Positions 4,314 to 26,669 are shown, counted from the stretch's first letter. The stretch is 64,000 bases of DNA from Thermoplasmatota archaeon (GCA_049602735.1 JBMYRW010000001.1:19502-83501), one strand, 5' to 3'. Notes: generated by a model from the letters alone, not told the origin. A program made the numbers and translations.

Positions 4314-4939
4314 GCGGGGACTTCCACCTGCTCCGTCCGCTCGACCACGGTGGTCAGCGTCCCCGACACGGTGAACGGTTGCCGTGTTACGTCGATGAAC
4401 GTGCTGCCGCCGTCCTTGGCGCTGGGCCAGACCTGTAGCAGGAGTTGTTGGCCTTCGACGTCGAGCGGTCCGTCGACGGTGAAGCTGCTCGTGTCCTCGC
4501 CGTAGGCAATCTGGGTGCCGTTGGGCGCCTGGATGCTCAGGACCAGGCCGGTCTGCGTGGCGTCGGCGGGGGTCCAATCGATGGTGAGGCTGATCGCTGT
4601 GAGGTCGCCCTCGAAGTCGATGGTCGTCTGGTACGCGGGGTCTTGGACGAGGTGACCGTAGGGGCAACCGGGGAGTTGGCAGACCCAGACGCCTTCGACG
4701 GTGCTGCCCGACCAGTCCACGGGGGTCTCGGCCATCTCGGTCACCGTGATCGTCTCCGTCCGGGTGGGCCCTTCGTCGCCTCCCGCTGCGCCGCTCCCGG
4801 CGCCGTCGCCTGAGGCGGTCGCAGGGGATCCGTCGTCGCTACAGCCTGCCAGCACCAGGGCCAGCGTCACCAGAGCCACCGTCGCCATCCGCACCATCGC
4901 CGCCAAGCGTGCCCTGGGCTCCAAAACGGTTGTGGGCAC
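4310..4939 (-). CDS. hypothetical secreted lipoprotein
   Basis: N-terminal hydrophobic segment with lipobox (LVLAGCSDDG) followed by a Gly/Asp linker. I recognise no family. Its stop overlaps the convergent upstream gene's stop within CTAG at 4310-4313. Confidence 0.5.
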   Translation of the reverse strand: MPTTVLEPRARLAAMVRMATVALVTLALVLAGCSDDGSPATASGDGAGSGAAGGDEGPTRTETITVTEMAETPVDWSGSTVEGVWVCQLPGCPYGHLVQDPAYQTTIDFEGDLTAISLTIDWTPADATQTGLVLSIQAPNGTQIAYGEDTSSFTVDGPLDVEGQQLLLQVWPSAKDGGSTFIDVTRQPFTVSGTLTTVVERTEQVEVPA

Positions 4940-4951
4940 GAAGCGCGCGTT

Positions 4952-6352
4952 TCAGGCGTCAGGGCCGTACGTGGCCAGGTAGCCTTCCATGCGGAGTTTC
5001 TTGCGGGTGCGCTCGCTGCTCATGGTGCGCACCTTGCCGTAGACGTCCCGTTCCTGCCAGCCACGGTCGAAGCGGCCGAACACCCAGGCGATGCCGCTCA
5101 CACTGTTGGGGTCGCGGCCGTCGAGTGCCCACCGGTCGTTGAGGTGGAACGCCAGGCGCCACGCCTCCTCGGGGCCCGGGCTCCATTCCAGGATCCGTTT
5201 GCCCCAGAGCATGCGCAGGTGGTTGTGCAGCATCCCCGTTCGCGTCAGTTGCCGCTGCGCCGCGTTCCAGACCTCGTCGTCGGTCTCCGCCGCCTCCAGC
5301 GTGGCCGCGTCGTAGGTGGTGCGCGGGTCGTCCGCGTGGGCAGCGAGCGTGGCGCGTGCCCATTCGGGCTGGGCGGCGTACGCGGTGTTGTCGGGCCGGT
5401 GGTGGCAGTCGACGAAGCCGAGTTCCCGCCAGGTGACGAGCTGGTCCATGAACGCCTCCGCCGCTTCGCCGAGGCCCCACCAACCCTTGGAGCCGTTGGT
5501 GTTCGTGATGCGGCCGGGGTTCCAGTCCTCGGCGGCCAGGATGCGGCCGGCCACCTCGTGGGCGCCGACGTGCCCGTAGTGGAGGTAGGGACTCAGGCCG
5601 CTCGCGGCATGGGCGTCGGGGTGGCTGGCGTCCAGGTAGCCGTCCAGGCGGGCCACGAAGTCGTCCAGGCACGCCTTTCCCGCCCTGGCGCCGCCTTCCA
5701 GGTCCACTTCCCCCACGGCCTGGTCGCCGTTTCCAGGCGGACGCTGGGCGCCGTCCACCGTCGGCTCGGCCCCGTCGGCACCTTCGCAGGGGCGCGCCGC
5801 GGGCCACCAGAGATGGTCGGCCAGGTTGCGCATGATGAAGCGTCGCAGGTGGACGGCGGCGGGCCAGGTGCGGGGGGTGGCTGCAAGGGGCAGGAGGCCG
5901 TTGCCCTCGACGGCCACGGCGCGGCAGGTCACGCTGGAGGGCAAGCCGGGTCGGCGAAGGGGATGATCGTCGGTGACGAGGAGCGAGGCACCCTTGGTCG
6001 CGGTGGCCAGCAGCTCCGCGAGGGCCTTGGCGGGGGCGAAGACGGCGCGGTGAGGGATGCCGTCCTTGGCCAAGGCGGCCGCGTTGTCCGCCATGCCTTG
6101 TTCGACCCAGGCGTCGAAGCGGGGCGCCGCGTACGGTCGGTCGGTGCGACAGGTCTCCAGCACCCAGAGCCCGACGCCAGCGGCCCGAGCCCGCTGGGCG
6201 GCGTGCTGGAGGGCCGGGTTGCCCGTCATGCGCCGCGCGGTGCGGCACCAGTAGACGACGGGACCGTCCGCTTTGCCCCCTTGGGCGTCGGTCGGCAGCA
6301 CCCGGACACGGATGTCGGGCACGGCGCCGTAGGCCGCCGCGGCTTCAGCCAC
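4952..6352 (-). CDS. phr: deoxyribodipyrimidine photolyase, class II (CPD)
   Basis: The C-terminal block LHNHLRMLWGKRILEWS...LNDRWALDGRDPNSVSGIAWVFGRFDRGWQERDVYGKVRTMS matches the class II CPD photolyase signature region. Confidence 0.85.
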   Translation of the reverse strand: MAEAAAAYGAVPDIRVRVLPTDAQGGKADGPVVYWCRTARRMTGNPALQHAAQRARAAGVGLWVLETCRTDRPYAAPRFDAWVEQGMADNAAALAKDGIPHRAVFAPAKALAELLATATKGASLLVTDDHPLRRPGLPSSVTCRAVAVEGNGLLPLAATPRTWPAAVHLRRFIMRNLADHLWWPAARPCEGADGAEPTVDGAQRPPGNGDQAVGEVDLEGGARAGKACLDDFVARLDGYLDASHPDAHAASGLSPYLHYGHVGAHEVAGRILAAEDWNPGRITNTNGSKGWWGLGEAAEAFMDQLVTWRELGFVDCHHRPDNTAYAAQPEWARATLAAHADDPRTTYDAATLEAAETDDEVWNAAQRQLTRTGMLHNHLRMLWGKRILEWSPGPEEAWRLAFHLNDRWALDGRDPNSVSGIAWVFGRFDRGWQERDVYGKVRTMSSERTRKKLRMEGYLATYGPDA

Positions 6353-9200: not shown

Positions 9201-9944
9201 TTACGCTTCGGCGGGCTTCTCGTTCAGGAAACCCGTGCTACCGTACAGCACCGCCTTCTTGACGTTGCCAATGTGGCGGGTGATGTCGATGCCCTGCGGG
9301 CACGCCTCGATGCAGTTGAACACCGTGCGGCAACGCCAGACACCCGTGTACTCGTTGAGGGCCTTCAGGCGCTCTTCGTTGCCCTCGTCGCGGGTGTCGA
9401 AGACGAAGCGGCTCGCCTGCACGATCGCGGCGGGGCCGACGAACTTGTCGTTCCACCAGAAGCTGGGGCAGCTCGTGGTGCAGGCGGCGCACATGATGCA
9501 CTTGGACTGGTCGTCGATGAGCGCCTGGTCCTCGGGCGCTTGCAGGCGCTCGCGGCCGTGGGGCTCGTGCTTGGTGATCTGGTACGGCTTGACGCTCTCG
9601 ATCGAGTCGAAGAAGTGGTCCATGTCGACGATGAGGTCCTTCTTCGCCGCCAAGCCCTTGAGAGGCTCGACAGTGATCGTGTCCGGCAGGTCCTGCGCCA
9701 GCGTCTTGCACGCCAGGCGGTTCTTGCCGTTGATGACCATGGCGTCGCTGCCACAGATACCGTGGGCGCAGCTGCGGCGGTAGGCCAGGCTACCGTCCTG
9801 GTACCACTTGACGCGGTTGAGCAGGTCCAGCACACGGTCCGTGGGCTCCACGTTGTCGAGCTGGTAGCTCTCCATGTGGGCGCTCTTGTCGCCGCTTTCT
9901 GGGTTGAAGCGGGCGATGCGGAGGGTGACGTTCTTCTTGTCCAT
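9201..9944 (-). CDS. sdhB: succinate dehydrogenase iron-sulfur subunit
   Basis: Contains CAHGICGSDAMVINGKNRLACKT and the Cys clusters CIMCAACTTSCP and CRTVFNCIEACP. Confidence 0.9.
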   Translation of the reverse strand: MDKKNVTLRIARFNPESGDKSAHMESYQLDNVEPTDRVLDLLNRVKWYQDGSLAYRRSCAHGICGSDAMVINGKNRLACKTLAQDLPDTITVEPLKGLAAKKDLIVDMDHFFDSIESVKPYQITKHEPHGRERLQAPEDQALIDDQSKCIMCAACTTSCPSFWWNDKFVGPAAIVQASRFVFDTRDEGNEERLKALNEYTGVWRCRTVFNCIEACPQGIDITRHIGNVKKAVLYGSTGFLNEKPAEA

Positions 9945-9952
9945 GATCCACC

Positions 9953-11731
9953 TCAGTACACGCGCTCCACAGGTTCGTAACGGGTCACCACGACCGGCTT
10001 GTACTCCAGGCGCGGACGGCTATCGCCCTCCACGCTCTCCGGCAGGTAGGCCATCGTGTGCTTCATCCAGGTCGCATCGTCGCGCTTCGGGAAGTCGTCG
10101 CGGGCGTGGCCGCCGCGGCTCTCCTGGCGGGCCAGGGCCGCTTCCACGACGCAGAGGCTGATGTCGAGCAGGTAACCGAGCTCCAGGGCCTCCATGAGCT
10201 CCGTGTTGAACAGGCTGCCCTTGTCGGAGACGCCCACGTCCTTGTAGCGGCGGCGCAGGTCCTGGATGATCTTGCGGCACTCCGTGAGGCTCTCCTGGGT
10301 ACGGTAGACACCGCACAGCTCCATCATCTTCTCCTGCATCTCGTCGCGCAGGGCCGCCACGGACTCCTTGCCGCTGCCGGCACGAAGGGCATCCAGCTGC
10401 TTGCGGACGGCCCCCTCGGCCTCGGCGCTCGCCGAGGGGAGTTCGATCCAGTCCGCATCGGCGCAGAAGGACGCCATCGCCTTGCCGCCGCGGCGGCCGA
10501 AGACCACCAGGTCGAGCAGGCTGTTGGTGCCCAGGCGGTTGCCGCCGTGGACGCTGACGCAGGCGCATTCGCCGGCGGCGTAGAAACCGGTCACCTTGGT
10601 GTTGTCCGGCTTCCAGACCACTTCCGCGTCCACGGTCGTGGGGATGCCACCCATGGCGTAGTGCGCCGTGGGAGCGATGGGGATGGGCTCCGTCTTGGGC
10701 TCCACGCCCAGGTAGGTGCGGGCGAAGCCGGTCACCTCGGGGAGCTTCTTGTCGATGACCTCGGGGTCCAGGTGCGTGATGTCCAGGTGGACGTACTGAT
10801 CGCCCTCGGGGCCGATGCCGTTGCCGGCACGGATCTCCGTGTAGATGGCCCGGCTGACCACGTCACGGCTGGCCAGGTCCTTGATCGTCGGGGCGTACTT
10901 CACCATGAACGCCTCGTCGTTCTTGTTGCGCAGGATACCGCCCTCGCCCCGCACCGCCTCCGAGACCAGGACGCCGATGCGCCACAGGCCCGTGGGGTGG
11001 AACTGGTAGAACTCCGGGTCCTCGATGGGGATGCCGTGGCGCATGGCCAGACCGACGCCGTCGCCGGTGAGGGCGTGGGCGTTGGAGGTGACCTTCCAGG
11101 CGCGGCCGTAGCCGCCCGTGGCGAACATCACGCCCTTGGCGTGGAACGTGTGCAGCTCGCCGTTCTCCAGCTCGTAGCTCACGACACCGCAGACCGCCTT
11201 GTTGCCGTCAGCGTCCGTGGACTCGAGGATCTCGAGGACCTGGTGTTCGTTGAAGAACTGGACGCCCTCCTTGATGCATTGCTGGTACAGCGTGTGCAGC
11301 ATGGCGTGACCGGTGCGGTCCGCCGCGTGGCAGGCGCGCTCCACGGGGGCTTTGCCGTGCTCGCGGGTGTGGCCGCCGAACTTGCGCTGCGAGATGCGCC
11401 CGTCCTCCAGCCGGTCGAAGGGGAGACCCAGGTGCTCCAGGTGGATGATCGTCTCGGGCGCGTCCTTGCACATCACTTCGATGGCGTCCTGGTCTCCCAG
11501 GAAGTCGCTGCCCTTGACGGTGTCATAGGTGTGCCATTCCCAGTTGTCCTCGTTGACGTTGCCGAGGCTGGCGGAGATGCCGCCCTGCGCCGCGCCGGTG
11601 TGGCTGCGGACCGGGTACAGCTTGGAGAGGACGGCGACGTTGAGGTCGCTGTGCTTGGCGAGCTCCAGGGCCGCCATGAGGCCGGCGCCGCCGGCGCCGA
11701 CGACGACCGCGTCGAACTTGTGGTACGTCAT
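9953..11731 (-). CDS. sdhA: succinate dehydrogenase flavoprotein subunit
   Basis: Has the FAD dinucleotide-binding N-terminus [13 protein letters not shown], the motif [11 protein letters not shown] (covalent-FAD His region) and HGANRLG-like [18 protein letters not shown]. Confidence 0.95.
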
Positions 11732-17866: not shown

Positions 17867-17943
17867 CCATCGAATTCTCCGTACTTGCCCACCGAACCGG
17901 CGCCAAATTCAACATCAATGAATGCAATGCCCTTCGAAGGAGT

Positions 17944-20900
17944 TCACGGGGTTGCTGGGATATCGGGAATAGCCGATTTCGGTTGAGAACCAACCGCCCT
18001 CGATGTCTCCGCAGTCTCGATTCCGTTCAGTGGTGGTGCCTCCTTCGCATCACCCAGCGATGGGGAATCCTCTAACCCTTTGGCAGCCCCCGATTCCCCC
18101 AGGCCATGTGGAGCTGGTTCAGACGGGCCAACATTTGCAAGATCCAGAAGCCGATAGTCACCTGGCACAACATGCACGGGTCGTTGCAATCCAGGCGGCA
18201 AGACCCCTTCCAATTCAGCTAGACTATGCAGGCCTTGCAACACTTCACCGTAAGTCCCCTGCGATGCGACTCGTATCGTCGTGGCCGACCCAGGATCTGA
18301 AAGCAATTGACGCGCAAATGCATCACTTGATCGGACGTCTCTAGTGATTAAGGCCCGGTCGCCAACGAAACCCATGATCGGAAGCCGCCACAGTTGGTGC
18401 CCCGCACCGAACCGGCGTAGCTGAGGCGCATCATCACGAAGCGCTGGTACGTCCATGGCAGCATTCAGTAGCAAACCCAAGTAGTACGTTCTGTTTCGAT
18501 TGACATGCTGGACGATTGGATGCTCGGCCCCGCCCCCTTGCGCCACCTGATCGCGCAAAGAAGCAACCCCCATCAATAATGATTGATCAAGAATGTCGGG
18601 GGCAAAGAATGACATGAAATCCAGAATGTTCGTTGCGTCAAACAATGTACCCGGCGAACGTGGCACAGACGTAATATGTTCCAAGTAGATTTCCTTTACA
18701 TCTTCTACGTGCGATAATACCAAGAAATTCTCGTACACCGTCCATTTCAGGAGGTTCGTGGCGCGGGAAAGAAGTGGCGAGATCTGATCGATTGTGCGAA
18801 CAAGCGCTGTCTCGAGGCTCTTGATCGTCGCCTGAGTCTTTTTCACTTGATTGTTGATGCGAGACTCGGCTGCCGCCATGACCGCTGATGCCTCTTGGGT
18901 TGCATCCGTCGTGGATGATGCGACCGCTGAGCTGCTCAACGCCTGCGCAAACTGCGCTGTTGTGCTGGCTCTGGAGCTGCTGTGGGCGACGGCCACGGAG
19001 GCCACGAACGGAATGCTGGCGCCGGCGGTCACGGCAGTCGAACTCACGTTGGTTTCCGTGCTGGCATTGGTCCGATTTGCCATGTGACTGGCTTCGGACA
19101 GCAGGGATTCAACGGTGTTCGCTTGGTGAGCTGCCTGTTCTGCCGTCGACACAATATCTTCGATTGCCTGCGCTGAAACCTGTTCCGCGCGAGACTTGAT
19201 CCGCTCAACAGTATCCTTCGACTCGCGAAGGACCTGCCCCGGCGCGAGGCTCTGTAGGTTGGCAAGGCTACCCAAGCTGTAGCCTACAAACGCCCATTCC
19301 TGCCTGACCGTCACCAGATACCGGCGACGGGGCAGCCCCTCCTCCGAAACAGGGCTGACCCGGGTCATCTTCAGCCTCCTGACGGTACGCGTTCGACCGG
19401 CCCCGTTCCCATCGGAAAGATCCAGCTGCGGCAACAAGGGACTCGAGCAAGCATAGTTGAGGCGCAAGAGGTCGTCGTACAACGAAGGTGAGAATACACT
19501 GGGCAATCGCGGCAGTGGATCGACCGCTGCATGGCTTTCAAGAGGCCCTAGCTGATCCACAACGATCGAAACAAAGGCATGTTGGGATTCTTCGGGAATC
19601 TTGAAAACCGCCTTGACGAGACCAGATGCGAGTCGGCCAGCTTCGATCACGCCCGTTGAAGCAGAGGTATTCCCTCGCGGGAACAGCAGGATCGCGATTC
19701 CTCCAGCGTTGGTGCGGGTGCGGTCGACGAGACGCTCATGCTCATCGTAGAGCCGAACCGGGTGTCCTGAAACGGCATTTCCGTCCTGGTCGGATACGAC
19801 CGCCAAGGCCATCTTTGTCCGCCGCCCATCACTGATTTCGTTGCCACGCCCAGCCAATCTGGGATTCGTATCCAACATGCTGCGCATGCGCGAATCGGAA
19901 TCAGAAAAGCCCTGCTCGGCGGCCTTCCTTACGCCGGGGGATGCGAACTCATCATCGATGGCGGCAACGGCCGCCTCTTGGTCACGGACCGCCTGGTCCA
20001 TCGCGTTCTGCAGATCTCGCTCCATTGCTTCCGCGGCCTCCGCCGACACGTTGGCCAGAGCCTCCGCAAGTTCTTCTTCATGCAGAGCTTGGAGCCGCAC
20101 GATACGTTCTTCGAGGTCCTGTGATCCCTCCAGCCGTATTTGATCGACGGCTGCCTGACGAACCCCCGCCTCTCGGGCCTTAAGCCCACCAAGATCGCGG
20201 TCCAGATTCAGGGGGGATTCTTCAACAACGCGGATGATCTGCGCCTGATATTCCGCTGTCTTGGCTCTAAGTTTGTCACTCCTTATGATAACTTGCGAAA
20301 TTTGGCGCTCGGCCTCGGCGACTTCAGCCCGCACCGAATCCTCGAGTTGCCGATCAGCGCTGGCTTCATCTCGGAACCCTTGCGACTCGATTTCCATTTG
20401 TTCCGCTTCCGCCTTCGACTGATCGATTTGGTCCTGGACCACCCCATATTGTCGCTCTTCAGCAACAACCAATTTCTCATATCGTACGGCCTCGTTCTTT
20501 GCCTCATCCTGGTCCGCGATTGCCTTGCGCAGCGCCTCCTTTTTCTTGGCCAACGTGCCGCGGAGGTTAGCGAGCTCCGCCTGGTGAGCCTGAGCTTCTT
20601 GCGCCGAGGAACCCGATTCTCGTTCCAATTCCCTTGCCTGCGCAGCCAGGTTCTCGGCATCCAACCTGGCCTTCGCGCGTGTCGCATCATGGCCGGCCCA
20701 GATCGATTGGTAGGCAGGATCCTTGTAGAGCCAGTTGCGCTTGTAGGAGGAAATTTTGTTATCGGGAATGCCATGCGATTTTTTGATGTCTGGATAGCTC
20801 CCTGCCCTCAAGCTCCACTTCCGACCTTTGGGCTTTCCTCGATTATAGCTTACGTGCTCAAAGAAAATCCATTCCCCTTCCGAAATACGCACCGCCGAGG

Positions 20901-21000
20901 CACGGTCGTTGAACGCTCTGCCGACCCATGACGAATCTGAATTGGAAGAAATGGATTGCCCCTTAAAATTTCGCTTCTCCCATAGGGTAACAATGCTCAT
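17944..21000 (-). CDS. uncharacterised 1018-aa protein: beta/gamma-crystallin-like domain, long coiled coil, beta-sandwich module and large conserved C-terminal core
   Basis: A long uninterrupted ORF in lower-GC DNA. Residues 3-88 carry two Greek-key motifs (WEKRNFKG...FNDRASAV; FFEHVSYNRG...PDNKISSY). Residues ~105-355 are heptad-like and Ala/Glu/Gln/Arg-rich. Residues 398-441 (VVSDQDGNAVSGHPVRLYD...TRTNAGGIAILLF) look like a CarboxypepD_reg-type sandwich. Residues ~555-925 are paralogous to the 885-aa ORF. Confidence 0.75.
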   Translation of the reverse strand: MSIVTLWEKRNFKGQSISSNSDSSWVGRAFNDRASAVRISEGEWIFFEHVSYNRGKPKGRKWSLRAGSYPDIKKSHGIPDNKISSYKRNWLYKDPAYQSIWAGHDATRAKARLDAENLAAQARELERESGSSAQEAQAHQAELANLRGTLAKKKEALRKAIADQDEAKNEAVRYEKLVVAEERQYGVVQDQIDQSKAEAEQMEIESQGFRDEASADRQLEDSVRAEVAEAERQISQVIIRSDKLRAKTAEYQAQIIRVVEESPLNLDRDLGGLKAREAGVRQAAVDQIRLEGSQDLEERIVRLQALHEEELAEALANVSAEAAEAMERDLQNAMDQAVRDQEAAVAAIDDEFASPGVRKAAEQGFSDSDSRMRSMLDTNPRLAGRGNEISDGRRTKMALAVVSDQDGNAVSGHPVRLYDEHERLVDRTRTNAGGIAILLFPRGNTSASTGVIEAGRLASGLVKAVFKIPEESQHAFVSIVVDQLGPLESHAAVDPLPRLPSVFSPSLYDDLLRLNYACSSPLLPQLDLSDGNGAGRTRTVRRLKMTRVSPVSEEGLPRRRYLVTVRQEWAFVGYSLGSLANLQSLAPGQVLRESKDTVERIKSRAEQVSAQAIEDIVSTAEQAAHQANTVESLLSEASHMANRTNASTETNVSSTAVTAGASIPFVASVAVAHSSSRASTTAQFAQALSSSAVASSTTDATQEASAVMAAAESRINNQVKKTQATIKSLETALVRTIDQISPLLSRATNLLKWTVYENFLVLSHVEDVKEIYLEHITSVPRSPGTLFDATNILDFMSFFAPDILDQSLLMGVASLRDQVAQGGGAEHPIVQHVNRNRTYYLGLLLNAAMDVPALRDDAPQLRRFGAGHQLWRLPIMGFVGDRALITRDVRSSDAFARQLLSDPGSATTIRVASQGTYGEVLQGLHSLAELEGVLPPGLQRPVHVVPGDYRLLDLANVGPSEPAPHGLGESGAAKGLEDSPSLGDAKEAPPLNGIETAETSRAVGSQPKSAIPDIPATP

Positions 21001-22211
21001 CGTACATCCTTCCCGTTCTGCTGTAGTTGGGTTTTCGCATCTGCCTCCTGTGTTTGGCCGGCAATGAGCTTCGTCGCTCCTTGATGGAACTCGGGCTCCG
21101 CTCGGGAAGTGTTTGCCAAGGAGGCGGCCTGTTGGACCGATTTCCGGGGCGCTGCCATGGAAAGGAACGCCAGCTCCGGAATCGAATTCAAAGGAAGGTC
21201 CGGCAGTTCCATTTCATCGATGCTCTCGATCCGTTGGGCTTGTTTCTCGTCCGCCTCCATCGCCTCCAGGTACGCAAGCTCTTCAGGCGTTGGCACCAAA
21301 GCTTCGTCCAATCGAATTTCAGCGGCCTGTTGGGCCTCAGCTACTGCGTGTTCTGTTCTTCTTTCTGCGAACTCTTTGAATTCCCCCACCGTTACCTTGT
21401 TGGCTGCGGCAGCCTTGCGCCGTGCCTGCCCGATGGCTGATTCACGTAGAGCTTGTGCCTGGGAAGCGAAGTCCTTCAGGGCTTCTTCCCGCAGCGTCGA
21501 AATTCGCTCCACTTCGGCCGCCTTTGCATCGGCGAGCTCCCGCCCATGCAGCTGTTGGGCCTCGAGAAGGTGCCTTCTGCGATGTCGCGCGGCCTCTCGG
21601 ATGGTCTCTGCGAGTTTTGCACTGGACTCTGTTTCAAGGGAAGCCGCATGCGCCAGCTCAGAATTGGCGTGGTCCAACCGTGACCGCTCGAACCGAATCT
21701 CTTCCTTCGCCGCCTGAAGCGTAGCCGATGCTGCACTCCGTTCGGTTTGGGCCGCCTTTTTTTTGGTAGCAGCATCAAACCTTTGTTTGGACGCGAGGCC
21801 TAGGGTTTCCTTGGATCGCTCCACCCTTTTGCGGAGGATTTCATACTCCTGCTTGAGCCGCGATGCTTGCGCATTGGCGTCGCGAGCGGTCTGCTGCTGA
21901 ATCGAGAGCTCCGCATCAAATTTTGTCAATTCGTCCCGGGCAATCTCAACTTCCTGCCTCAGCTCGTCGAGGCGATCTGCATCAACAAGGCTGGCCCTAG
22001 CAGCATCGATTTTTTCGCGATGGGATTGAGCATTCTTTCGGTATTGTTCCAACTTTTTTTGATGTTCCGTCTCGGCTGCACCATGCGCGCTTCTTGCCCT
22101 TCGCTCATCGTTCGAACGAATCGCTGCGTCCATCTCGTCGCTGTAGAAACCGTAGATGGACCAACCATCGCTCGATGTTTTCACGGCAGCACCAGGCGCT
22201 ACAGCACCCAC
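20997..22211 (-). CDS. uncharacterised coiled-coil protein (404 aa from GTG 22211; alternative ATG at 22133)
   Basis: Almost entirely Glu/Ala/Arg/Gln/Lys-rich heptad-like sequence with no other motif. Its TGA stop overlaps the ATG of the 1018-aa gene (ATGA at 20997-21000). The start is uncertain because the first in-frame start codon is GTG. Confidence 0.65.
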   Translation of the reverse strand: MGAVAPGAAVKTSSDGWSIYGFYSDEMDAAIRSNDERRARSAHGAAETEHQKKLEQYRKNAQSHREKIDAARASLVDADRLDELRQEVEIARDELTKFDAELSIQQQTARDANAQASRLKQEYEILRKRVERSKETLGLASKQRFDAATKKKAAQTERSAASATLQAAKEEIRFERSRLDHANSELAHAASLETESSAKLAETIREAARHRRRHLLEAQQLHGRELADAKAAEVERISTLREEALKDFASQAQALRESAIGQARRKAAAANKVTVGEFKEFAERRTEHAVAEAQQAAEIRLDEALVPTPEELAYLEAMEADEKQAQRIESIDEMELPDLPLNSIPELAFLSMAAPRKSVQQAASLANTSRAEPEFHQGATKLIAGQTQEADAKTQLQQNGKDVR

Positions 22212-22296
22212 GGACCATTTAGCTTCATCGGCCCAAGTTGCAAGTCGGGATGGTTGCCGCGATAAATCACGGGAACTGCAGCAACTGATGCTAATC

Positions 22297-22422
22297 CCAA
22301 GATCGTTTGGCTGACGCCTCTGTTGTCATGATCTTGGAGTGGCGAGGATTGGATAGAAGCGCTCCGTAAATCTCTTCAATGGCGCGGCCTTTCTAGGGCT
22401 GACGAAAAGAGCTGTTCGTCAG
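22297..22422. promoter_or_regulatory. divergent control region of the island genes with two perfect 8-bp inverted repeats
   Basis: CCAAGATC (22297-22304) / GATCTTGG (22330-22337) with a 25-nt spacer. CTGACGAA (22399-22406) / TTCGTCAG (22415-22422) with an 8-nt spacer, ending 15 nt before ATG 22437. A/T-rich TATA-like elements are ATAAAT at 22262-22267 and TAAATC at 22367-22372. Confidence 0.3.
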
Positions 22423-22436
22423 GACAAGAAGAGCCC

Positions 22437-25094
22437 ATGCTTCCACCATCCAAATCCTCTGGCCGTATTGGCCGGCTGAGCAGGTCGAAGGGATTGGCCC
22501 CTGGCGATGTCCTCACGGTGCGCGGCAAGGAGCTTCGAAGCTTTGCGGGCGGTAGCCTTACGGGGTCCCAAAAGCTTCGCATCGAACGGCTGGCAGGAAC
22601 AAGGCTTGTGGCCCTGAAAATTGACGGCAGTCCAGATTATCTTGGCTCGCCCGATGACCCTGGAAGGCCGACGACCTCATTGGCCCGGGTAGCCCCAAGT
22701 GATGCCAATTCCAAGATTGCCCTATTTGAGATGGAGGGTAACCAACTTAGGCTAGGGAGGTTCCTGCCACCGGGCAACATCCCCGGGGATGCCGAGATCA
22801 GCCTGAGTCAGCCGGTCAAGAAACGGGTAGATGCGTTGCCTTCTGGCCCGAACAGGTCGATTCCCGATCCCCCCGAAACGCAACCAAAGGTCGAGATTTC
22901 AACGCAGCTGGACTCCACGGAGGGATCGTCCAATCCCTCTGCGCCCGCGGCTGACATGAATGGCTACCAAGCCATCGTTGCTGCAGTCCGGGATCATGAC
23001 GGAAACGTAGCCTCTGGCGTCCTTGCGCGTCTGCGACGTGGACAGCGGGTCCTGGACGTGACGCGAACAAACCACCAAGGCATGGCCTTGCTGCTCTTTG
23101 GGGAACCTTCAGCTGGCTTGTCTGAACCAAGCGATTCGAAGGCCCCATTTTCCATCGAAGTGATTGCCAAGGACGAAGTTGTATCGGTCGAACTAACCCA
23201 CACAGACGGAGACATTGGAATCGTGGACGTCCAGATCAATGAAACGCCCAAGTTGACGGCTACGGCACCCAATCTCTTGGCCCGGCTTCCGGCCGAACAT
23301 AGCCCCCAACTTGCATCCACGCTGATCACAATTGCTGGGGCATCCTCCCAAATGGATGAGGTCGCCGCCAAGGATCGGGGCGATCGCGTCCGCCATTTCC
23401 GTCGTCACGTGGCTGTTCCACGCATCGGCCCAGACGGTGGCCGGTTCCTCGTGATGGTGCGCCAGGACTGGACCTATCTTGGCGAGGCCTTGGGCAACAT
23501 CCACGATGCGAATGCAATCCTCCCACAGCAGACTGCGACCAGCGAACGGTCGACAAGTGATCAGCTTTCAAGCGAAGCTCTTGGAGCTACGCTGCCTTAC
23601 GATCGGATCGCAAACCGGATTGTGGGTCGGCCAAGACTCGAAGAACAGACACAGCCCACGGAGCCAGCCCTGGCGATCCACTCCCTCCCGTCGCTGGCGG
23701 GCTTCTGGGTCGCGGATGGTCGCTTCGATCTCGTCTCAAAGGAAGCAAACCAAGCGGTAAGAGACCAAGCTGAGCGACTGATTGGTGCAAAAAAGATTAA
23801 TCGTCAACCAGAGGCCCGCACGATCGAACAGCGGTCCCCTGACGCACTGCGTGCCACCAATTTCCTGAATATCGACTTGAATGAAAGGTTCTTGGTGCGT
23901 AGTGCGATCGAGACCGTGTTTCGCGTGGACGGCCTTGTGCCATCACCACAAGACGCCACAACCGTGCCAAGCTTGACGGTTCGAGAGTTGCTTGCCATGT
24001 GGCCCGTTTGGAGCGAGCTGCTCCGCTTTGATGGCGTTCTGGAGGATCAACGGTTGCTCCAGGAAATGGTGGAACGCGAGCGCGTTGACCTAGCCGTCCC
24101 GTCCGAGATTGAAATCGTTCTTGATTTTGAATCCATGCTAGCGGATGGACTTGCAACGCTCCGCGTGGGGCAGGACACCGCAAAGGCCGTACTTCCAGCC
24201 GGAAAAGGTACGGTGACGATCAGCGTCCAGAATCCCTCCAACCGCTCTCGGCGAGACATCAGGGAATTTGTACTGGAACTAAGCCTGGAAGTTCCATCGA
24301 CGTCCATCAGTATTGATGGAGATCAGGACAACGCCGATCTTCGGGAGCTCTTGGAGCGCGTGCATCGGTCCAGCAGGGATGATCTGCTCGATCAGGCCAG
24401 CATCACAGTTTCCCCAGTGGCAGCACATTTCCAATCGAAGGAAGGCACCCTAGAATCCATCGATTCGATTGAGGTGGTCGGATCGCGGTTCCTAAGAGGC
24501 CCCGAGAAGCGCCGCTGGACCTTCGACGTAACTCCCGAGAAAATTGATGCGCGGAAAGTGAATTCCATCGTTGACCACATCCTAGACCAGCAAGGGAGGT
24601 ACTTGCGAACAGCCCTGGCGGCGGCTTGGAAGTTCCCGGAATGGCGCCAACGCCTTCAATCTCTCTTGGGAATCGATGCCGATGATTCCGTATGGGAGTC
24701 GAAATTGATTGGCTTTGATGGCGCGTCGGCCTTGTACGTGGTTCCCGCCCACCAGGACGATGCCTTCGCGAAGGAGCTCCTTCGTGACCCTGGATCGGCC
24801 ATGCTTGTTCATCTCCCTACGGGGTCGACGTTTACCCAAACCAGCCCGATTGATGTGGAGGCGCCTTCCGACCTCCATGCGGAAGCCGATGGCGTCAAGC
24901 AGGGCCGCTCTTTGGAACTGGCCCGGTCGATGTTGCAACAACTAGGCGTTGATGCCACACTGGCGGAACTGATGCCAAAGGATCCAAACCTTTCTCCAGA
25001 TTCTGTCGATCGTCCTGGCCGAACGGAGGACCTGACGAAAACCACCGAAACCATCGTGAAAAAACTCCATGAGCAATCGAGCCAGATTGCCTAG
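22437..25094 (+). CDS. uncharacterised 885-aa protein, paralogue of the C-terminal two-thirds of the 1018-aa protein
   Basis: It shares colinear motifs with the 1018-aa ORF: VRDHDGNVASGVLARL...TRTNHQGMALLLF; GRFLVMVRQDWTYLGEALGNI; NFLNIDLNERFLVRSAIETV; GFDGASALYVVPAHQDDAFAKELLRDPGSA. It has a unique ~175-aa N-terminus and no signal peptide. Confidence 0.75.
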   Translation: MLPPSKSSGRIGRLSRSKGLAPGDVLTVRGKELRSFAGGSLTGSQKLRIERLAGTRLVALKIDGSPDYLGSPDDPGRPTTSLARVAPSDANSKIALFEMEGNQLRLGRFLPPGNIPGDAEISLSQPVKKRVDALPSGPNRSIPDPPETQPKVEISTQLDSTEGSSNPSAPAADMNGYQAIVAAVRDHDGNVASGVLARLRRGQRVLDVTRTNHQGMALLLFGEPSAGLSEPSDSKAPFSIEVIAKDEVVSVELTHTDGDIGIVDVQINETPKLTATAPNLLARLPAEHSPQLASTLITIAGASSQMDEVAAKDRGDRVRHFRRHVAVPRIGPDGGRFLVMVRQDWTYLGEALGNIHDANAILPQQTATSERSTSDQLSSEALGATLPYDRIANRIVGRPRLEEQTQPTEPALAIHSLPSLAGFWVADGRFDLVSKEANQAVRDQAERLIGAKKINRQPEARTIEQRSPDALRATNFLNIDLNERFLVRSAIETVFRVDGLVPSPQDATTVPSLTVRELLAMWPVWSELLRFDGVLEDQRLLQEMVERERVDLAVPSEIEIVLDFESMLADGLATLRVGQDTAKAVLPAGKGTVTISVQNPSNRSRRDIREFVLELSLEVPSTSISIDGDQDNADLRELLERVHRSSRDDLLDQASITVSPVAAHFQSKEGTLESIDSIEVVGSRFLRGPEKRRWTFDVTPEKIDARKVNSIVDHILDQQGRYLRTALAAAWKFPEWRQRLQSLLGIDADDSVWESKLIGFDGASALYVVPAHQDDAFAKELLRDPGSAMLVHLPTGSTFTQTSPIDVEAPSDLHAEADGVKQGRSLELARSMLQQLGVDATLAELMPKDPNLSPDSVDRPGRTEDLTKTTETIVKKLHEQSSQIA

Positions 25095-25133
25095 TGCATC
25101 AGGGTATTGCAGCGTTCTCGAGGTAGATCTCAC

Positions 25134-26669
25134 CTAGCGACTACTGTCGGTGGAGTTCGCCGGCCCCAACGCCCGTAGCCGCTCCGCCAGGATGCCCATG
25201 GCGGTCGCCGTCTCCAGGCTGACCGAGGCGCCGGTGATCTCGTAGTGGGCGGGGCAGGCTTCCAGGACGTGGCGGGGTAGCCCGCGCGGGCCGAGGCCCA
25301 TGAGCACGCAGAGTCGTCCATGCACCTCTTTGGCCCTCTCCAGGGTCTCCAGGCGCTCTGGGTCCGGCTTGGGCGTCGTCGCCACCGGCCAACCGGGCAG
25401 GTCGTCCAGGGTCAACTCGTCCACGGCGCTCACCCGGCCGGCCTCGAGGAGCGCTTCCAGGTGCCCGGCGCCTTCACCGATGCCGGTCTCCGTCGCTGCT
25501 GCTTCCGCGATGGCTGCCAGGTCGGCCGGGAAGGCCACCAGGAGCAGGTCGAGGTTGAACGCGGCGGCGAGCGGTGCTGCGCGGGCGACGGCACGTAGGT
25601 GAGGCAAGCCCAGGCCGCCGTCGTAGGTGTTCCAGAGGGCGAGCGTGTGGGTGCCGGCGCGACGCTCCGGGCGCCACGTCCCCTCCGTCGCCACGGCTTC
25701 CTGCTCGGGCTCCGCCGACTCGACGGGGACGGCCGGAGCGGCCAGGTCGAGGCCAGCCTTCTCGGCCGCCGCCTCCAGGCGCTTGCGCGTCGCCGGTGGC
25801 AGGTCGGCGCGCTCGGCCGCCTGAAGGAGCATGCCCTTGCCGGCGGCGTCGCCCAGCTTGTCCAGACGAGCGCCACACGCGATCAGCACGTCGGGGCGTT
25901 CGCCGCCGAGGCCGGCCACGCGGGCCAGGTCCTGCACGTCGTCCATGCGCCACACCATGCGGCGAAGCGGCTCCGCGCGAGCCTCCTCCGAGAGCGCCAT
26001 CATGGCCTCCATGGCCGGCGCGAGCGCCTCCGCACAACCACGGTGATGCAGCTGCCCCAGGGCCTCAGCGCGGGGGGCGTCCGCCATGTCCTGGATCGCC
26101 ACCATCAAACGGCCATGCTCGTGGGGCTCCGCGTGGCGAAGCACCGCCTTGAAGCCACGGGACTCGAAGCCGGCGTTGCCGCCTGCGCGTTGGAAGAGCA
26201 CCTCGCGGCCATCAGGGCCGACGTGGCCCGCTGCCGCCTCGATCGCCGACAGGGTCCATTCGCCGTCCGGAAGAGCTGCGATGCCTTCGGCGACCTCCAA
26301 GAGCAGCACGTCCCGAGTGCGGCCATGCCAACCGGCGACCGCCTTGGCCAGGTCGCCCAGCACTTCGGCGCGGCGGCCCAGACGCTCCACCATGGCGGCC
26401 CGTTGCAAGGCGCCGCGGAGGGCCTCCTCGGTCTGCTTCAGGCTCGTGTTGCCCACGGTCGCCACCTGCGCCATGGCGGTCGCGGCCCAGGAGAGGTCGC
26501 GGATCGCGTCCGCCTCGGCCAGCAATTCTACGGCCGGTCGGGTCTTCGCCTTGGCCAGACGGACCAGTTCACGGGCGCGGCTCGGGGCGTGTTCACGTGC
26601 CGGCGGCTTGCCATGGCCACCCCCTCCGCCCCCACGGCCGCGGCGGCCGGGGCTCTTGGTCTTGGCCAT
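25134..26669 (-). CDS. protein with RG-rich N-terminus, ~330-aa helical domain and C-terminal SPOUT-like (alpha/beta-knot methyltransferase-like) domain
   Basis: N-terminus MAKTKSPGRRGRGGGGGGHGK. The C-terminal HTLALWNTYDGGLGLPHLRAVARAAPLAAAFNLDLLLV and RLCVLMGLGPRGLPRHVLEACPAHYEITGASVSLETATAMGILAERL resemble SPOUT motifs 1-3. The start overlaps the upstream stop by 1 nt (TGATG). Confidence 0.5.
   Translation of the reverse strand: MAKTKSPGRRGRGGGGGGHGKPPAREHAPSRARELVRLAKAKTRPAVELLAEADAIRDLSWAATAMAQVATVGNTSLKQTEEALRGALQRAAMVERLGRRAEVLGDLAKAVAGWHGRTRDVLLLEVAEGIAALPDGEWTLSAIEAAAGHVGPDGREVLFQRAGGNAGFESRGFKAVLRHAEPHEHGRLMVAIQDMADAPRAEALGQLHHRGCAEALAPAMEAMMALSEEARAEPLRRMVWRMDDVQDLARVAGLGGERPDVLIACGARLDKLGDAAGKGMLLQAAERADLPPATRKRLEAAAEKAGLDLAAPAVPVESAEPEQEAVATEGTWRPERRAGTHTLALWNTYDGGLGLPHLRAVARAAPLAAAFNLDLLLVAFPADLAAIAEAAATETGIGEGAGHLEALLEAGRVSAVDELTLDDLPGWPVATTPKPDPERLETLERAKEVHGRLCVLMGLGPRGLPRHVLEACPAHYEITGASVSLETATAMGILAERLRALGPANSTDSSR

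Follow-up and report, generated by a model that had tools for sequence, protein, structure and literature searches.

Why should an archaeal protein of over a thousand residues begin with a beta/gamma-crystallin domain? The question is raised by a gene, called here P0001, on the minus strand of a 64,000-nucleotide stretch of the genome of a Thermoplasmatota archaeon (GCA_049602735.1 JBMYRW010000001.1:19502-83501; this whole stretch is the window, and positions are counted from its first letter). Beta/gamma-crystallin domains found outside the eye lens are well-known Ca2+-binding modules, the roles of which on their carrier proteins are mostly obscure, and we know of few archaeal examples studied beyond M-crystallin. 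An earlier reading made from the DNA sequence alone (the sequence-only reading) had proposed that positions 19936-21000, which encode residues 1-355 of P0001, join a probably Ca2+-binding crystallin domain to a coiled coil of about 290 residues, in an architecture that it did not recognise. We find that P0001, the stop-free frame of which encodes 1018 residues, is almost certainly a modular head-stalk-body protein built of a crystallin domain, a coiled coil followed by broken helices, a rare core and a disordered proline-rich tail (Table 1). The crystallin domain itself is ordinary, being one more member of a known family, whereas the protein that carries it is rare and undescribed.

The crystallin domain was recovered by profile, by sequence and by predicted structure. 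The Pfam Crystall profile (PF00030), a search that had been set beforehand as a test of the proposal, matched residues 4-88 with an E-value of 4.9e-12 and 46.2 bits (gathering cut-off 25) over profile positions 2-81 of 82, and thus bears out the domain placed by the sequence-only reading at residues 3-88. A phmmer search of the PDB gave 61 crystallin chains, the best being the archaeal M-crystallin (3hz2/2k1w, E-value 4.9e-14), to which 32 of 79 residues are identical (40.5%). In an AlphaFold2 model of residues 1-395 strands run across the whole domain, with predicted local distance difference test (pLDDT) values mostly of 83-93. Foldseek returned 3hz2_A as the top match of this model, with a template modelling (TM) score of 0.86 (normalised to the target) and 2.4 Å root-mean-square deviation (rmsd) over 87 columns; the Ciona crystallin 2bv2 gave a TM score of 0.88, and the rmsd values over 2bv2 and 3hz2 were 2.0-2.4 Å. 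Hence, by predicted structure and superposition, the domain has the double Greek-key beta-sandwich fold that the earlier reading had expected.

The short motifs on which that reading relied are all where it had put them: WEKRNFKG at residues 7-14, NDRASA at 31-36, FEHVSYNRG at 47-55 and DNKISS at 80-85. The signature of the first Greek key is exact (W7-EKRN-F12-K-G14). That of the second is found only in a relaxed form (F47-EHVS-Y52-N-[RGKPK]-G59, or F-x4-Y-x-x-G), the Y-x-G element being broken by a five-residue insertion, RGKPK, which is of low pLDDT and is absent both from M-crystallin and from the crystallin domains of the related proteins described below.

The Ca2+ motif of such domains is defined as N/D-N/D-X-X-S/T-S (PMC3551895). 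The side-chain ligands come from position 5 of one motif and position 2 of the partner motif, to which two main-chain carbonyls are added, and an arginine at position 5 disables the site (bioRxiv 10.1101/475277). The second motif of P0001 is canonical and has the structural serine at position 6 (S85). The first departs from the consensus only at this sixth, non-ligand residue, where it has A36, and the fold is still confidently predicted. All four side-chain ligand positions are kept, S35 and N81 for one site and S84 and D32 for the other, and neither motif has a disabling Arg or Lys at position 5. Judged from these residues, two-site Ca2+ binding by the P0001 domain is plausible, and the earlier wording of probable Ca2+ binding was a reasonable one.

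M-crystallin, a protein of Methanosarcina acetivorans (2k1w), binds two Ca2+ with Kd values of about 30 and 200 µM (PMC3984160). The P0001 domain resembles it (2k1w, 3hz2) in being an archaeal AB-type double Greek key with two motifs of the N/D-N/D-X-X-S/T-S type. The two differ in setting, in that the M-crystallin chain that was studied stands alone (~85 residues) whereas the P0001 domain heads a 1018-residue protein, and they also differ in detail, by the alanine at position 6 of motif 1, the RGKPK insertion in the second Greek key and a net charge of +9. This charge is unusually basic; the crystallin heads of three relatives, P0023, P0024 and P0052, have charges of -5 to 0. Moreover, the P0001 head is nearer to M-crystallin (40%) than to the P0023, P0024 and P0052 heads (27-34%; no BLAST match for the P0052 head), and a word-index search with residues 1-95 of P0001 for other long proteins sharing the head returned P0001 itself only. 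The P0001 head may have been gained or remodelled separately from the core.

The coiled coil proved shorter than had been proposed. Heptad periodicity was at first tested by a crude Fourier analysis, which gave no clear signal; register analysis, which took its place, gave a single unbroken register over residues 93-264, with 64 and 71% of the a and d positions hydrophobic or alanine and 62 and 56% of the e and g positions charged. The heptad signal of residues 105-260 stands well above that of shuffled sequences (z = 3.9), and AlphaFold placed helices at residues 95-128, 133-206 and 213-261. If extended, this canonical part would be ~25 nm long. Over residues 265-390 the heptad signal is no better than that of shuffles (z = 0.5), and the modelled helices (266-291, 295-352 and 355-378, the last extending to ~383) are separated by breaks at 262-265, 292-294 and 353-354. 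Thus, heptads cover two-thirds of the ~290-residue coiled coil of the sequence-only reading and the remainder is irregular: canonical coiled coil accounts for ~170 residues of the stalk and interrupted helices for a further ~120. Against the PDB the stalk gave only keratin 14 (E-value 0.19). An ATPase of the SMC, Rad50 or JetC type was also considered and was rejected, as the matches were of ~10 bits, which is coiled-coil noise (the cut-offs are 567-1087 bits), and there is no ATPase domain.

Behind the stalk lie ~540 conserved residues (~630 with the tail) that gave no significant match in Pfam, NCBIfam, PADLOC, PHROG or the PDB, and hence it was fair to call the architecture unrecognised. 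A profile of 23 family members likewise found nothing below an E-value of 0.75 among the PDB sequences. An AlphaFold2 model of this core made from the 23-sequence alignment (mean pLDDT 67.6) gave, in order, a beta-sandwich, a long beta-hairpin, two helices of ~60 residues that flank a disordered tip, a beta-hairpin, an alpha/beta domain and the disordered tail. The sandwich matched transthyretin-like, CnaB and pilin domains in Foldseek (TM scores 0.55-0.70, normalised to the target) and gave a sub-threshold Pfam match to bMG3. The good Foldseek matches of the core in the PDB and BFVD cover only this ~90-residue sandwich; those to SlaB, teneurin and tail fibres have rmsd values of 12-58 Å and were set aside. 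The C-terminal alpha/beta domain had no structural or sequence match in the PDB, and its motifs are invariant columns of the 23-sequence alignment.

The tip between the two long helices had been described as unique to the 1018-residue paralogue. This was only partly right, as the tip corresponds to a feature conserved across the family: it sits where the bacterial homologues have a Gly-rich hydrophobic stretch. In the bacterial proteins the most hydrophobic 19 residues have Kyte-Doolittle values above 1.2 in all but two cases and typically of 1.6-1.97, often with a central GP.GA turn, and tips of this type weakly matched membrane families with glycine zippers (DUF948, C19orf12). The most hydrophobic 19-mer of P0001 is STAVTAGASIPFVASVAVA, with a value of 1.53. 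A hydrophobic or amphipathic segment of the kind that could insert in membranes is clear in most bacterial members, moderate in P0001 and weak in the other archaeal members.

The core defines a rare family: a search of 5.8 billion proteins gave 21 clusters, and one of 1.84 billion gave 64 representatives at E<1e-30. P0001 scores 877 bits against the family profile, and 37 columns are invariant across alignments. Behind the sandwich the family motifs R-Q-E/D-W...LG-Y/E-x-LG, SPLLSR-x-T/S-N, NRNRTYY, LWRLP-x-x-GF-x-G and D-x-G-x-AT are colinear, and P0001 has them. The members come from soil-type metagenome-assembled genomes of Pyrinomonadaceae, Chloroflexia, Frankiales, Longimicrobium, Thermoanaerobaculia and Sphingobacteriaceae together with two Thermoplasmatota/Thermoplasmata archaea. 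Only 2 of 61 related genomes have the core; a carrier that we call G005 is Thermoplasmatota archaeon JBFIHX01, which belongs to the same taxonomic family as the genome of the window and is the only relative in that family to have the gene, a finding that supports an archaeal origin. Most members contain an insert of ~170 residues, and the form without it (the short core) is common to P0001, P0023 and P0052. The core tree unites the bacterial members in one clade (support 100/100), outside of which fall the crystallin- and ChW-headed proteins and P0003, an 885-residue neighbour of P0001; P0023 and P0024 are sisters.

The fusion of crystallin to core is not unique to P0001. P0052 (1004 residues), a single metagenomic protein, has the same layout of a crystallin domain, a helical stalk (~270 residues, rich in Ala, Arg and Glu) and a short core, and is 39% identical to P0001 over 657 residues. 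P0023, encoded by G005, has crystallin and fascin-like domains with a short core. P0024, from the next gene but one (a small membrane-protein gene lies between), has three crystallin domains and a long core, and P0038 has ChW repeats with the core. Most bacterial members are headless. At the place of the disordered tail of P0001, 6 of 23 members have collagen-like tails (PF01391), which imply trimers. Among the 125 proteins fetched, mostly family members, crystallin heads occur only on P0001, P0023, P0024 and P0052, and across the 32 genomes of the archaeal family every crystallin domain that passed the cut-off was fused to this core. The crystallin domain thus heads a rare, conserved and unannotated family that spans the boundary between bacteria and archaea. 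The exchange of heads (crystallin, fascin-like, ChW) and tails (collagen-like) makes its role testable as that of a targeting or stabilising module, and the ~540-residue core, having no known fold relative, is a candidate for a new machine acting on envelopes or membranes. Should the core prove ordinary, P0001 would be just one more domain combination.

Inspection of 19 loci encoding the core gave no conserved gene neighbours, the clusters found being antisense shadow open reading frames (ORFs) of the same gene. One locus of G005 (L005) is the only one of the 19 to have small membrane proteins beside the core genes. There a small single-pass membrane protein divergently precedes each crystallin-core gene (4824-5747 and 9399-10184, both minus strand). 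These proteins, P0026 and P0025, share a C-terminal domain (BLASTP 3e-10) and could be partner or immunity proteins; tblastn found no counterpart of them in the window.

A wider unannotated superfamily was also seen (P0097-P0124, 1100-1850 residues, taken together with P0052 from a representative library and hence without loci). Its motifs are Q-x-W..G..LG[DE]..SL-x-LAPGE and N-x-NH-x-HALT..Y, plus a Gly-rich tip. These proteins had no Pfam or PADLOC match; sub-threshold OmpA-like matches at some C-termini, one HHH_3 match and weak tape-measure-like PHROG matches at the tip were recorded.

What might such a protein do? On circumstantial grounds, we tentatively favor the view that P0001 works as a head-stalk-effector protein on membranes or cell envelopes. 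The crystallin domain, stabilised by Ca2+, would serve as a terminal module for binding and would be one of a set of heads that are interchangeable in front of the same core. The coiled coil would oligomerise P0001 and hold the head ~25 nm from the body, and P0002, the 404-residue product of the gene upstream, which is probably co-translated, may share in the oligomerisation or spacing of the stalk. The conserved core would be the working part, acting on the membrane or envelope through its helical-hairpin tip, and the whole would resemble those bacteriocins or pore-formers that lack a signal peptide and whose receptor-binding head is mounted on a coiled coil. We lean to this view because of the envelope-type modules of the relatives, the Gly-zipper-like tips of the bacterial members, the collagen tails (and hence trimers), the absence of a signal peptide, a trait shared with bacteriocins released by lysis, and the precedent of beta-gamma-CAT. 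Modules of the ChW, fascin-like/beta-trefoil, collagen and OmpA-like kinds are characteristic of proteins that bind the envelope. The missing signal peptide had been remarked on in the sequence-only reading and none is visible by hydropathy.

The precedent is BmALP1, the alpha subunit of beta-gamma-CAT from the toad Bombina maxima, in which crystallin domains are fused to an aerolysin pore-forming domain (PMC10206775, PMC2262142). It is the only described layout of crystallin head plus membrane effector that we found. As in BmALP1, the crystallin of P0001 is N-terminal to the body, the membrane action of which is presumptive in P0001. BmALP1 differs in being eukaryotic and secreted and in having two crystallin domains, no coiled coil and an aerolysin body, whereas P0001 has no aerolysin/ETX-MTX2 match in Pfam. 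A second comparison is with vibrillin of Vibrio cholerae (PMC3551895), in which, as in P0001, a Ca2+-type crystallin is a module of a large lineage-restricted protein. The vibrillin carrier is another one, with S-type motifs, no reported coiled coil and no core of the P0001 type. Colicin-type bacteriocins such as colicin Ia lack a signal peptide; their receptor-binding part is borne by a long coiled coil, and their pore-forming domain contains a hydrophobic hairpin of helices. P0001 would share this general logic of binding head, long coiled coil, membrane-inserting helical hairpin and release without a signal peptide, but it is similar to the colicins neither in sequence nor in fold, has no immunity or lysis gene beside it and lacks a clearly hydrophobic hairpin tip. 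Known pore-formers and bacteriocins (aerolysin, ClyA, colicin, MACPF) were tried as relatives of the core and were rejected, as there was no match in Pfam, NCBIfam, PADLOC or PHROG and the fold matches were to the sandwich only.

Several findings count against a membrane or envelope effector. Searches by sequence and by fold linked P0001 to no known pore-former, bacteriocin, fusogen or defence protein, and neither an immunity or lysis gene nor a conserved neighbour turned up at the 19 loci. The model of the helical hairpin is of only moderate confidence (pLDDT 60-70). The archaeal tips are rich in Ser, Thr and Ala, with hydropathy falling from the 1.53 of P0001 to 0.3-0.9 in P0023, P0024 and P0052. 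Site 2 adjoins the RGKPK insertion and motif 1 has Ala36, either of which could make Ca2+ binding weaker; the oligomeric state of P0001 and its pairing with P0002 are putative. Finally, a crude hydropathy check found no signal peptide, transmembrane helix or export signal in P0001, P0002 or P0003, so that an extracellular role would require some other route of release. A bolder version of the effector hypothesis, which we consider unlikely, would make the core an undescribed class of membrane-inserting effector (pore-former or fusogen) of soil bacteria and Thermoplasmatota, free of signal peptides and with interchangeable heads to aim it. On this view P0001 would be a bacteriocin-like 'archaeocin', the basic Ca2+-loaded head of which would bind the target envelope from a ~25-nm stalk, with P0002 as a chaperone or inhibitor.

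The same layout could belong to a cytoplasmic, membrane-associated scaffold or tether, in which the tip would be a re-entrant hairpin (mitofusin-, IncA- or flotillin-like) with both ends in the cytoplasm, the coiled coil would serve as lattice or tether and the crystallin would sense, or be stabilised by, intracellular Ca2+. Such a protein would account for the fact that a signal peptide was seen in no inspected member, all four crystallin-headed proteins included, and for the topology of helix, hydrophobic Gly-rich segment and helix with its weak DUF948 and C19orf12 matches; long coiled coils are also typical of prokaryotic scaffold proteins. We nevertheless rate a scaffold as somewhat unlikely, given that the accessory modules of the relatives (ChW, fascin-like trefoil, collagen-like tail, OmpA-like) are of envelope or extracellular types and that the tips of the archaeal members are of too polar a composition to form a stable hairpin in the membrane. 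Moreover, no NTPase or other scaffold partner is conserved nearby at the 19 loci, and the patchy, island-borne distribution (2 of 61 relatives) is unlike that of a housekeeping scaffold.

A structural protein of the envelope is a quite unlikely reading, in which P0001 would be a stalk or anchor of a surface layer (S-layer) or coat, assembled through Ca2+-dependent crystallin contacts, with a layout like that of SlaB and a use of Ca2+ like that of Protein S. The spore coat of Myxococcus is indeed built by Ca2+-binding crystallin domains (Protein S), Protein S is among the PDB crystallin matches of P0001, and the Pro-rich and collagen-like tails would suit such a role. The best whole-core Foldseek match in the PDB was SlaB, the S-layer stalk of Sulfolobus acidocaldarius (8qox_B; E-value 4.9e-6 over 417 columns), an archaeal protein that, like P0001, has beta-sandwich domain(s) followed by a long helix. 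However, the TM score of this match is only 0.13-0.18 with an rmsd of 58 Å, which reflects shared element types only, and there is no sequence similarity to P0001. SlaB carries a signal peptide and a C-terminal membrane anchor, whereas P0001 has neither, and a gene that is missing from 59 of the 61 related genomes searched and lies on an island of foreign G+C content is unlike a core envelope component.

Still less probable is that P0001 is a leftover or domesticated fibre or receptor-binding protein of a virus or tailocin-like particle, a trimeric fibre with a crystallin head that recognises the host surface. The low-GC island, the sandwich matches to phage tail-fibre and baseplate proteins, the collagen-like and coiled-coil segments (both common in phage fibres) and the weak tape-measure matches of the distant relatives would all agree with such an origin. 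We think it very unlikely, as no other viral gene was seen in the island or beside any of the 19 homologous loci, P0001-P0003 have no significant PHROG match (the best, E-value 0.003, is to a family of unknown function), and the viral structure matches cover only the generic ~90-residue sandwich. That the crystallin likeness arose by chance, from motifs matching in a frame that is non-coding or of low complexity, has practically no likelihood: the individual motifs are short, but profile, sequence and fold evidence agree (the PF00030, PDB and Foldseek matches refute it), the frame of 1018 codons is intact in DNA of 57% GC, and conserved homologues have the same layout.

Whatever its function, P0001 belongs to a compact insertion. 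Exactly three genes, P0001, P0002 and P0003, make up an island in which G+C falls to ~57% (across 17.8-25.15 kb) against ~69% for the window average and ~70% in the surroundings. The flanks are ordinary housekeeping genes, namely nitroreductase, DoxX, HxlR, a DUF531-type gene, FMN reductase and alcohol dehydrogenase. In a relative of another genus (G006, locus L043, 60-2988) the DoxX-HxlR pair lies only ~0.65 kb from the DUF531-type gene, and the junction holds only a 161-residue glyoxalase-like ORF with no trace of the P0001-P0003 genes. The three-gene cassette is a lineage-specific insertion, because G006 keeps the same flanks without the three genes, and the foreign G+C agrees; it was probably acquired horizontally. 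No integrase, tRNA or repeat signature was seen at the island (17870-25130).

The P0001 start codon overlaps the TGA stop codon of P0002 as ATGA, and a GGAAGGA Shine-Dalgarno-like run lies upstream of the ATG. P0002 is strongly heptad-periodic (z = 5.1), its register running unbroken through residues 62-203, and gave no family match in the Pfam, NCBIfam, PADLOC and PHROG searches. It was considered as a paralogue of the P0001 stalk and this was ruled out, there being no sequence similarity between them. P0003 is a paralogue of P0001 residues ~390-920 (BLASTP 5e-17 and 3e-10) that, by alignment, keeps the ~170-residue long-core insert. It is extremely divergent, on a branch of 5-7 substitutions per site in the core tree, and its N-terminal ~170 residues are matchless. 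A pair of short-core and long-core genes is also present in G005, where the two are sisters; so the P0001/P0003 pair and the G005 pair arose independently or by conversion.

Table 1 Features of P0001 and of the island that contains it (window coordinates).
Feature	Position	Strand	Basis or remark
P0001 gene (crystallin head, helical stalk, rare core, disordered tail)	17944..21000	-	Open frame and translation
Beta/gamma-crystallin domain, residues 4-88, single domain, two Greek keys, M-crystallin type	20737..20991	-	PF00030, 3hz2/2k1w, Foldseek
Putative Ca2+ motif 1, N31-D32-R33-A34-S35-A36	20893..20910	-	Positions 2 and 5 kept; position 6 Ala for Ser
Putative Ca2+ motif 2, D80-N81-K82-I83-S84-S85	20746..20763	-	Canonical N/D-N/D-X-X-S/T-S (PMC3551895)
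Canonical coiled coil, residues 93-264, ~24 heptads, single unbroken register	20209..20724	-	Register analysis, AlphaFold
Interrupted helical region, residues 265-383 (P262, G271-G272, register shifts)	19852..20208	-	AlphaFold, heptad test
Transthyretin/CnaB-like beta-sandwich opening the core, residues 390-481	19558..19833	-	pLDDT 80-93; Foldseek; sub-threshold bMG3
Two long core helices flanking the tip, residues 588-646 and 684-750	18751..19239	-	AlphaFold core positions 199-257 and 295-361, pLDDT ~60-70
Ser/Thr/Ala-rich tip, residues 647-683	18952..19062	-	Modelled disordered; family alignment and hydropathy
C-terminal beta-hairpin and alpha/beta domain, residues 755-929	18214..18738	-	pLDDT 83-95; motifs SPLLSR.TN, NRNRTYY, LWRLP..GF.GD, DPG.AT
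Pro/Ala/Ser/Gly-rich disordered tail, residues 930-1018	17947..18213	-	pLDDT <50; composition
P0002, 404-residue all-helical coiled-coil protein, upstream gene, ATGA-coupled to P0001	20997..22211	-	Overlap, heptad register
P0003, divergent 885-residue paralogue, long core, without crystallin or stalk	22437..25094	+	BLASTP, alignment, tree
Low-GC island, 7.2 kb, exactly three genes (P0001-P0003)	17870..25130	.	Composition, flanks in G006

Two further observations concern the surroundings of these genes. The DUF531-type neighbour (25134-26669, minus strand) is a full-length ORF of 511 residues that ends in DUF531. In ~25 related genomes open frames of 480-550 residues align with it, the long N-terminal helical part included, and many relatives have a second, short DUF531 paralogue. 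Within the island, P0002 and P0003 are separated by a divergent spacer of 225 bp (22212-22436) that has A/T-rich TATA-like hexamers, ATAAAT near 22262 and GTAAAT near 22367, and the inverted repeats pointed out in the sequence-only reading lie in the same spacer.

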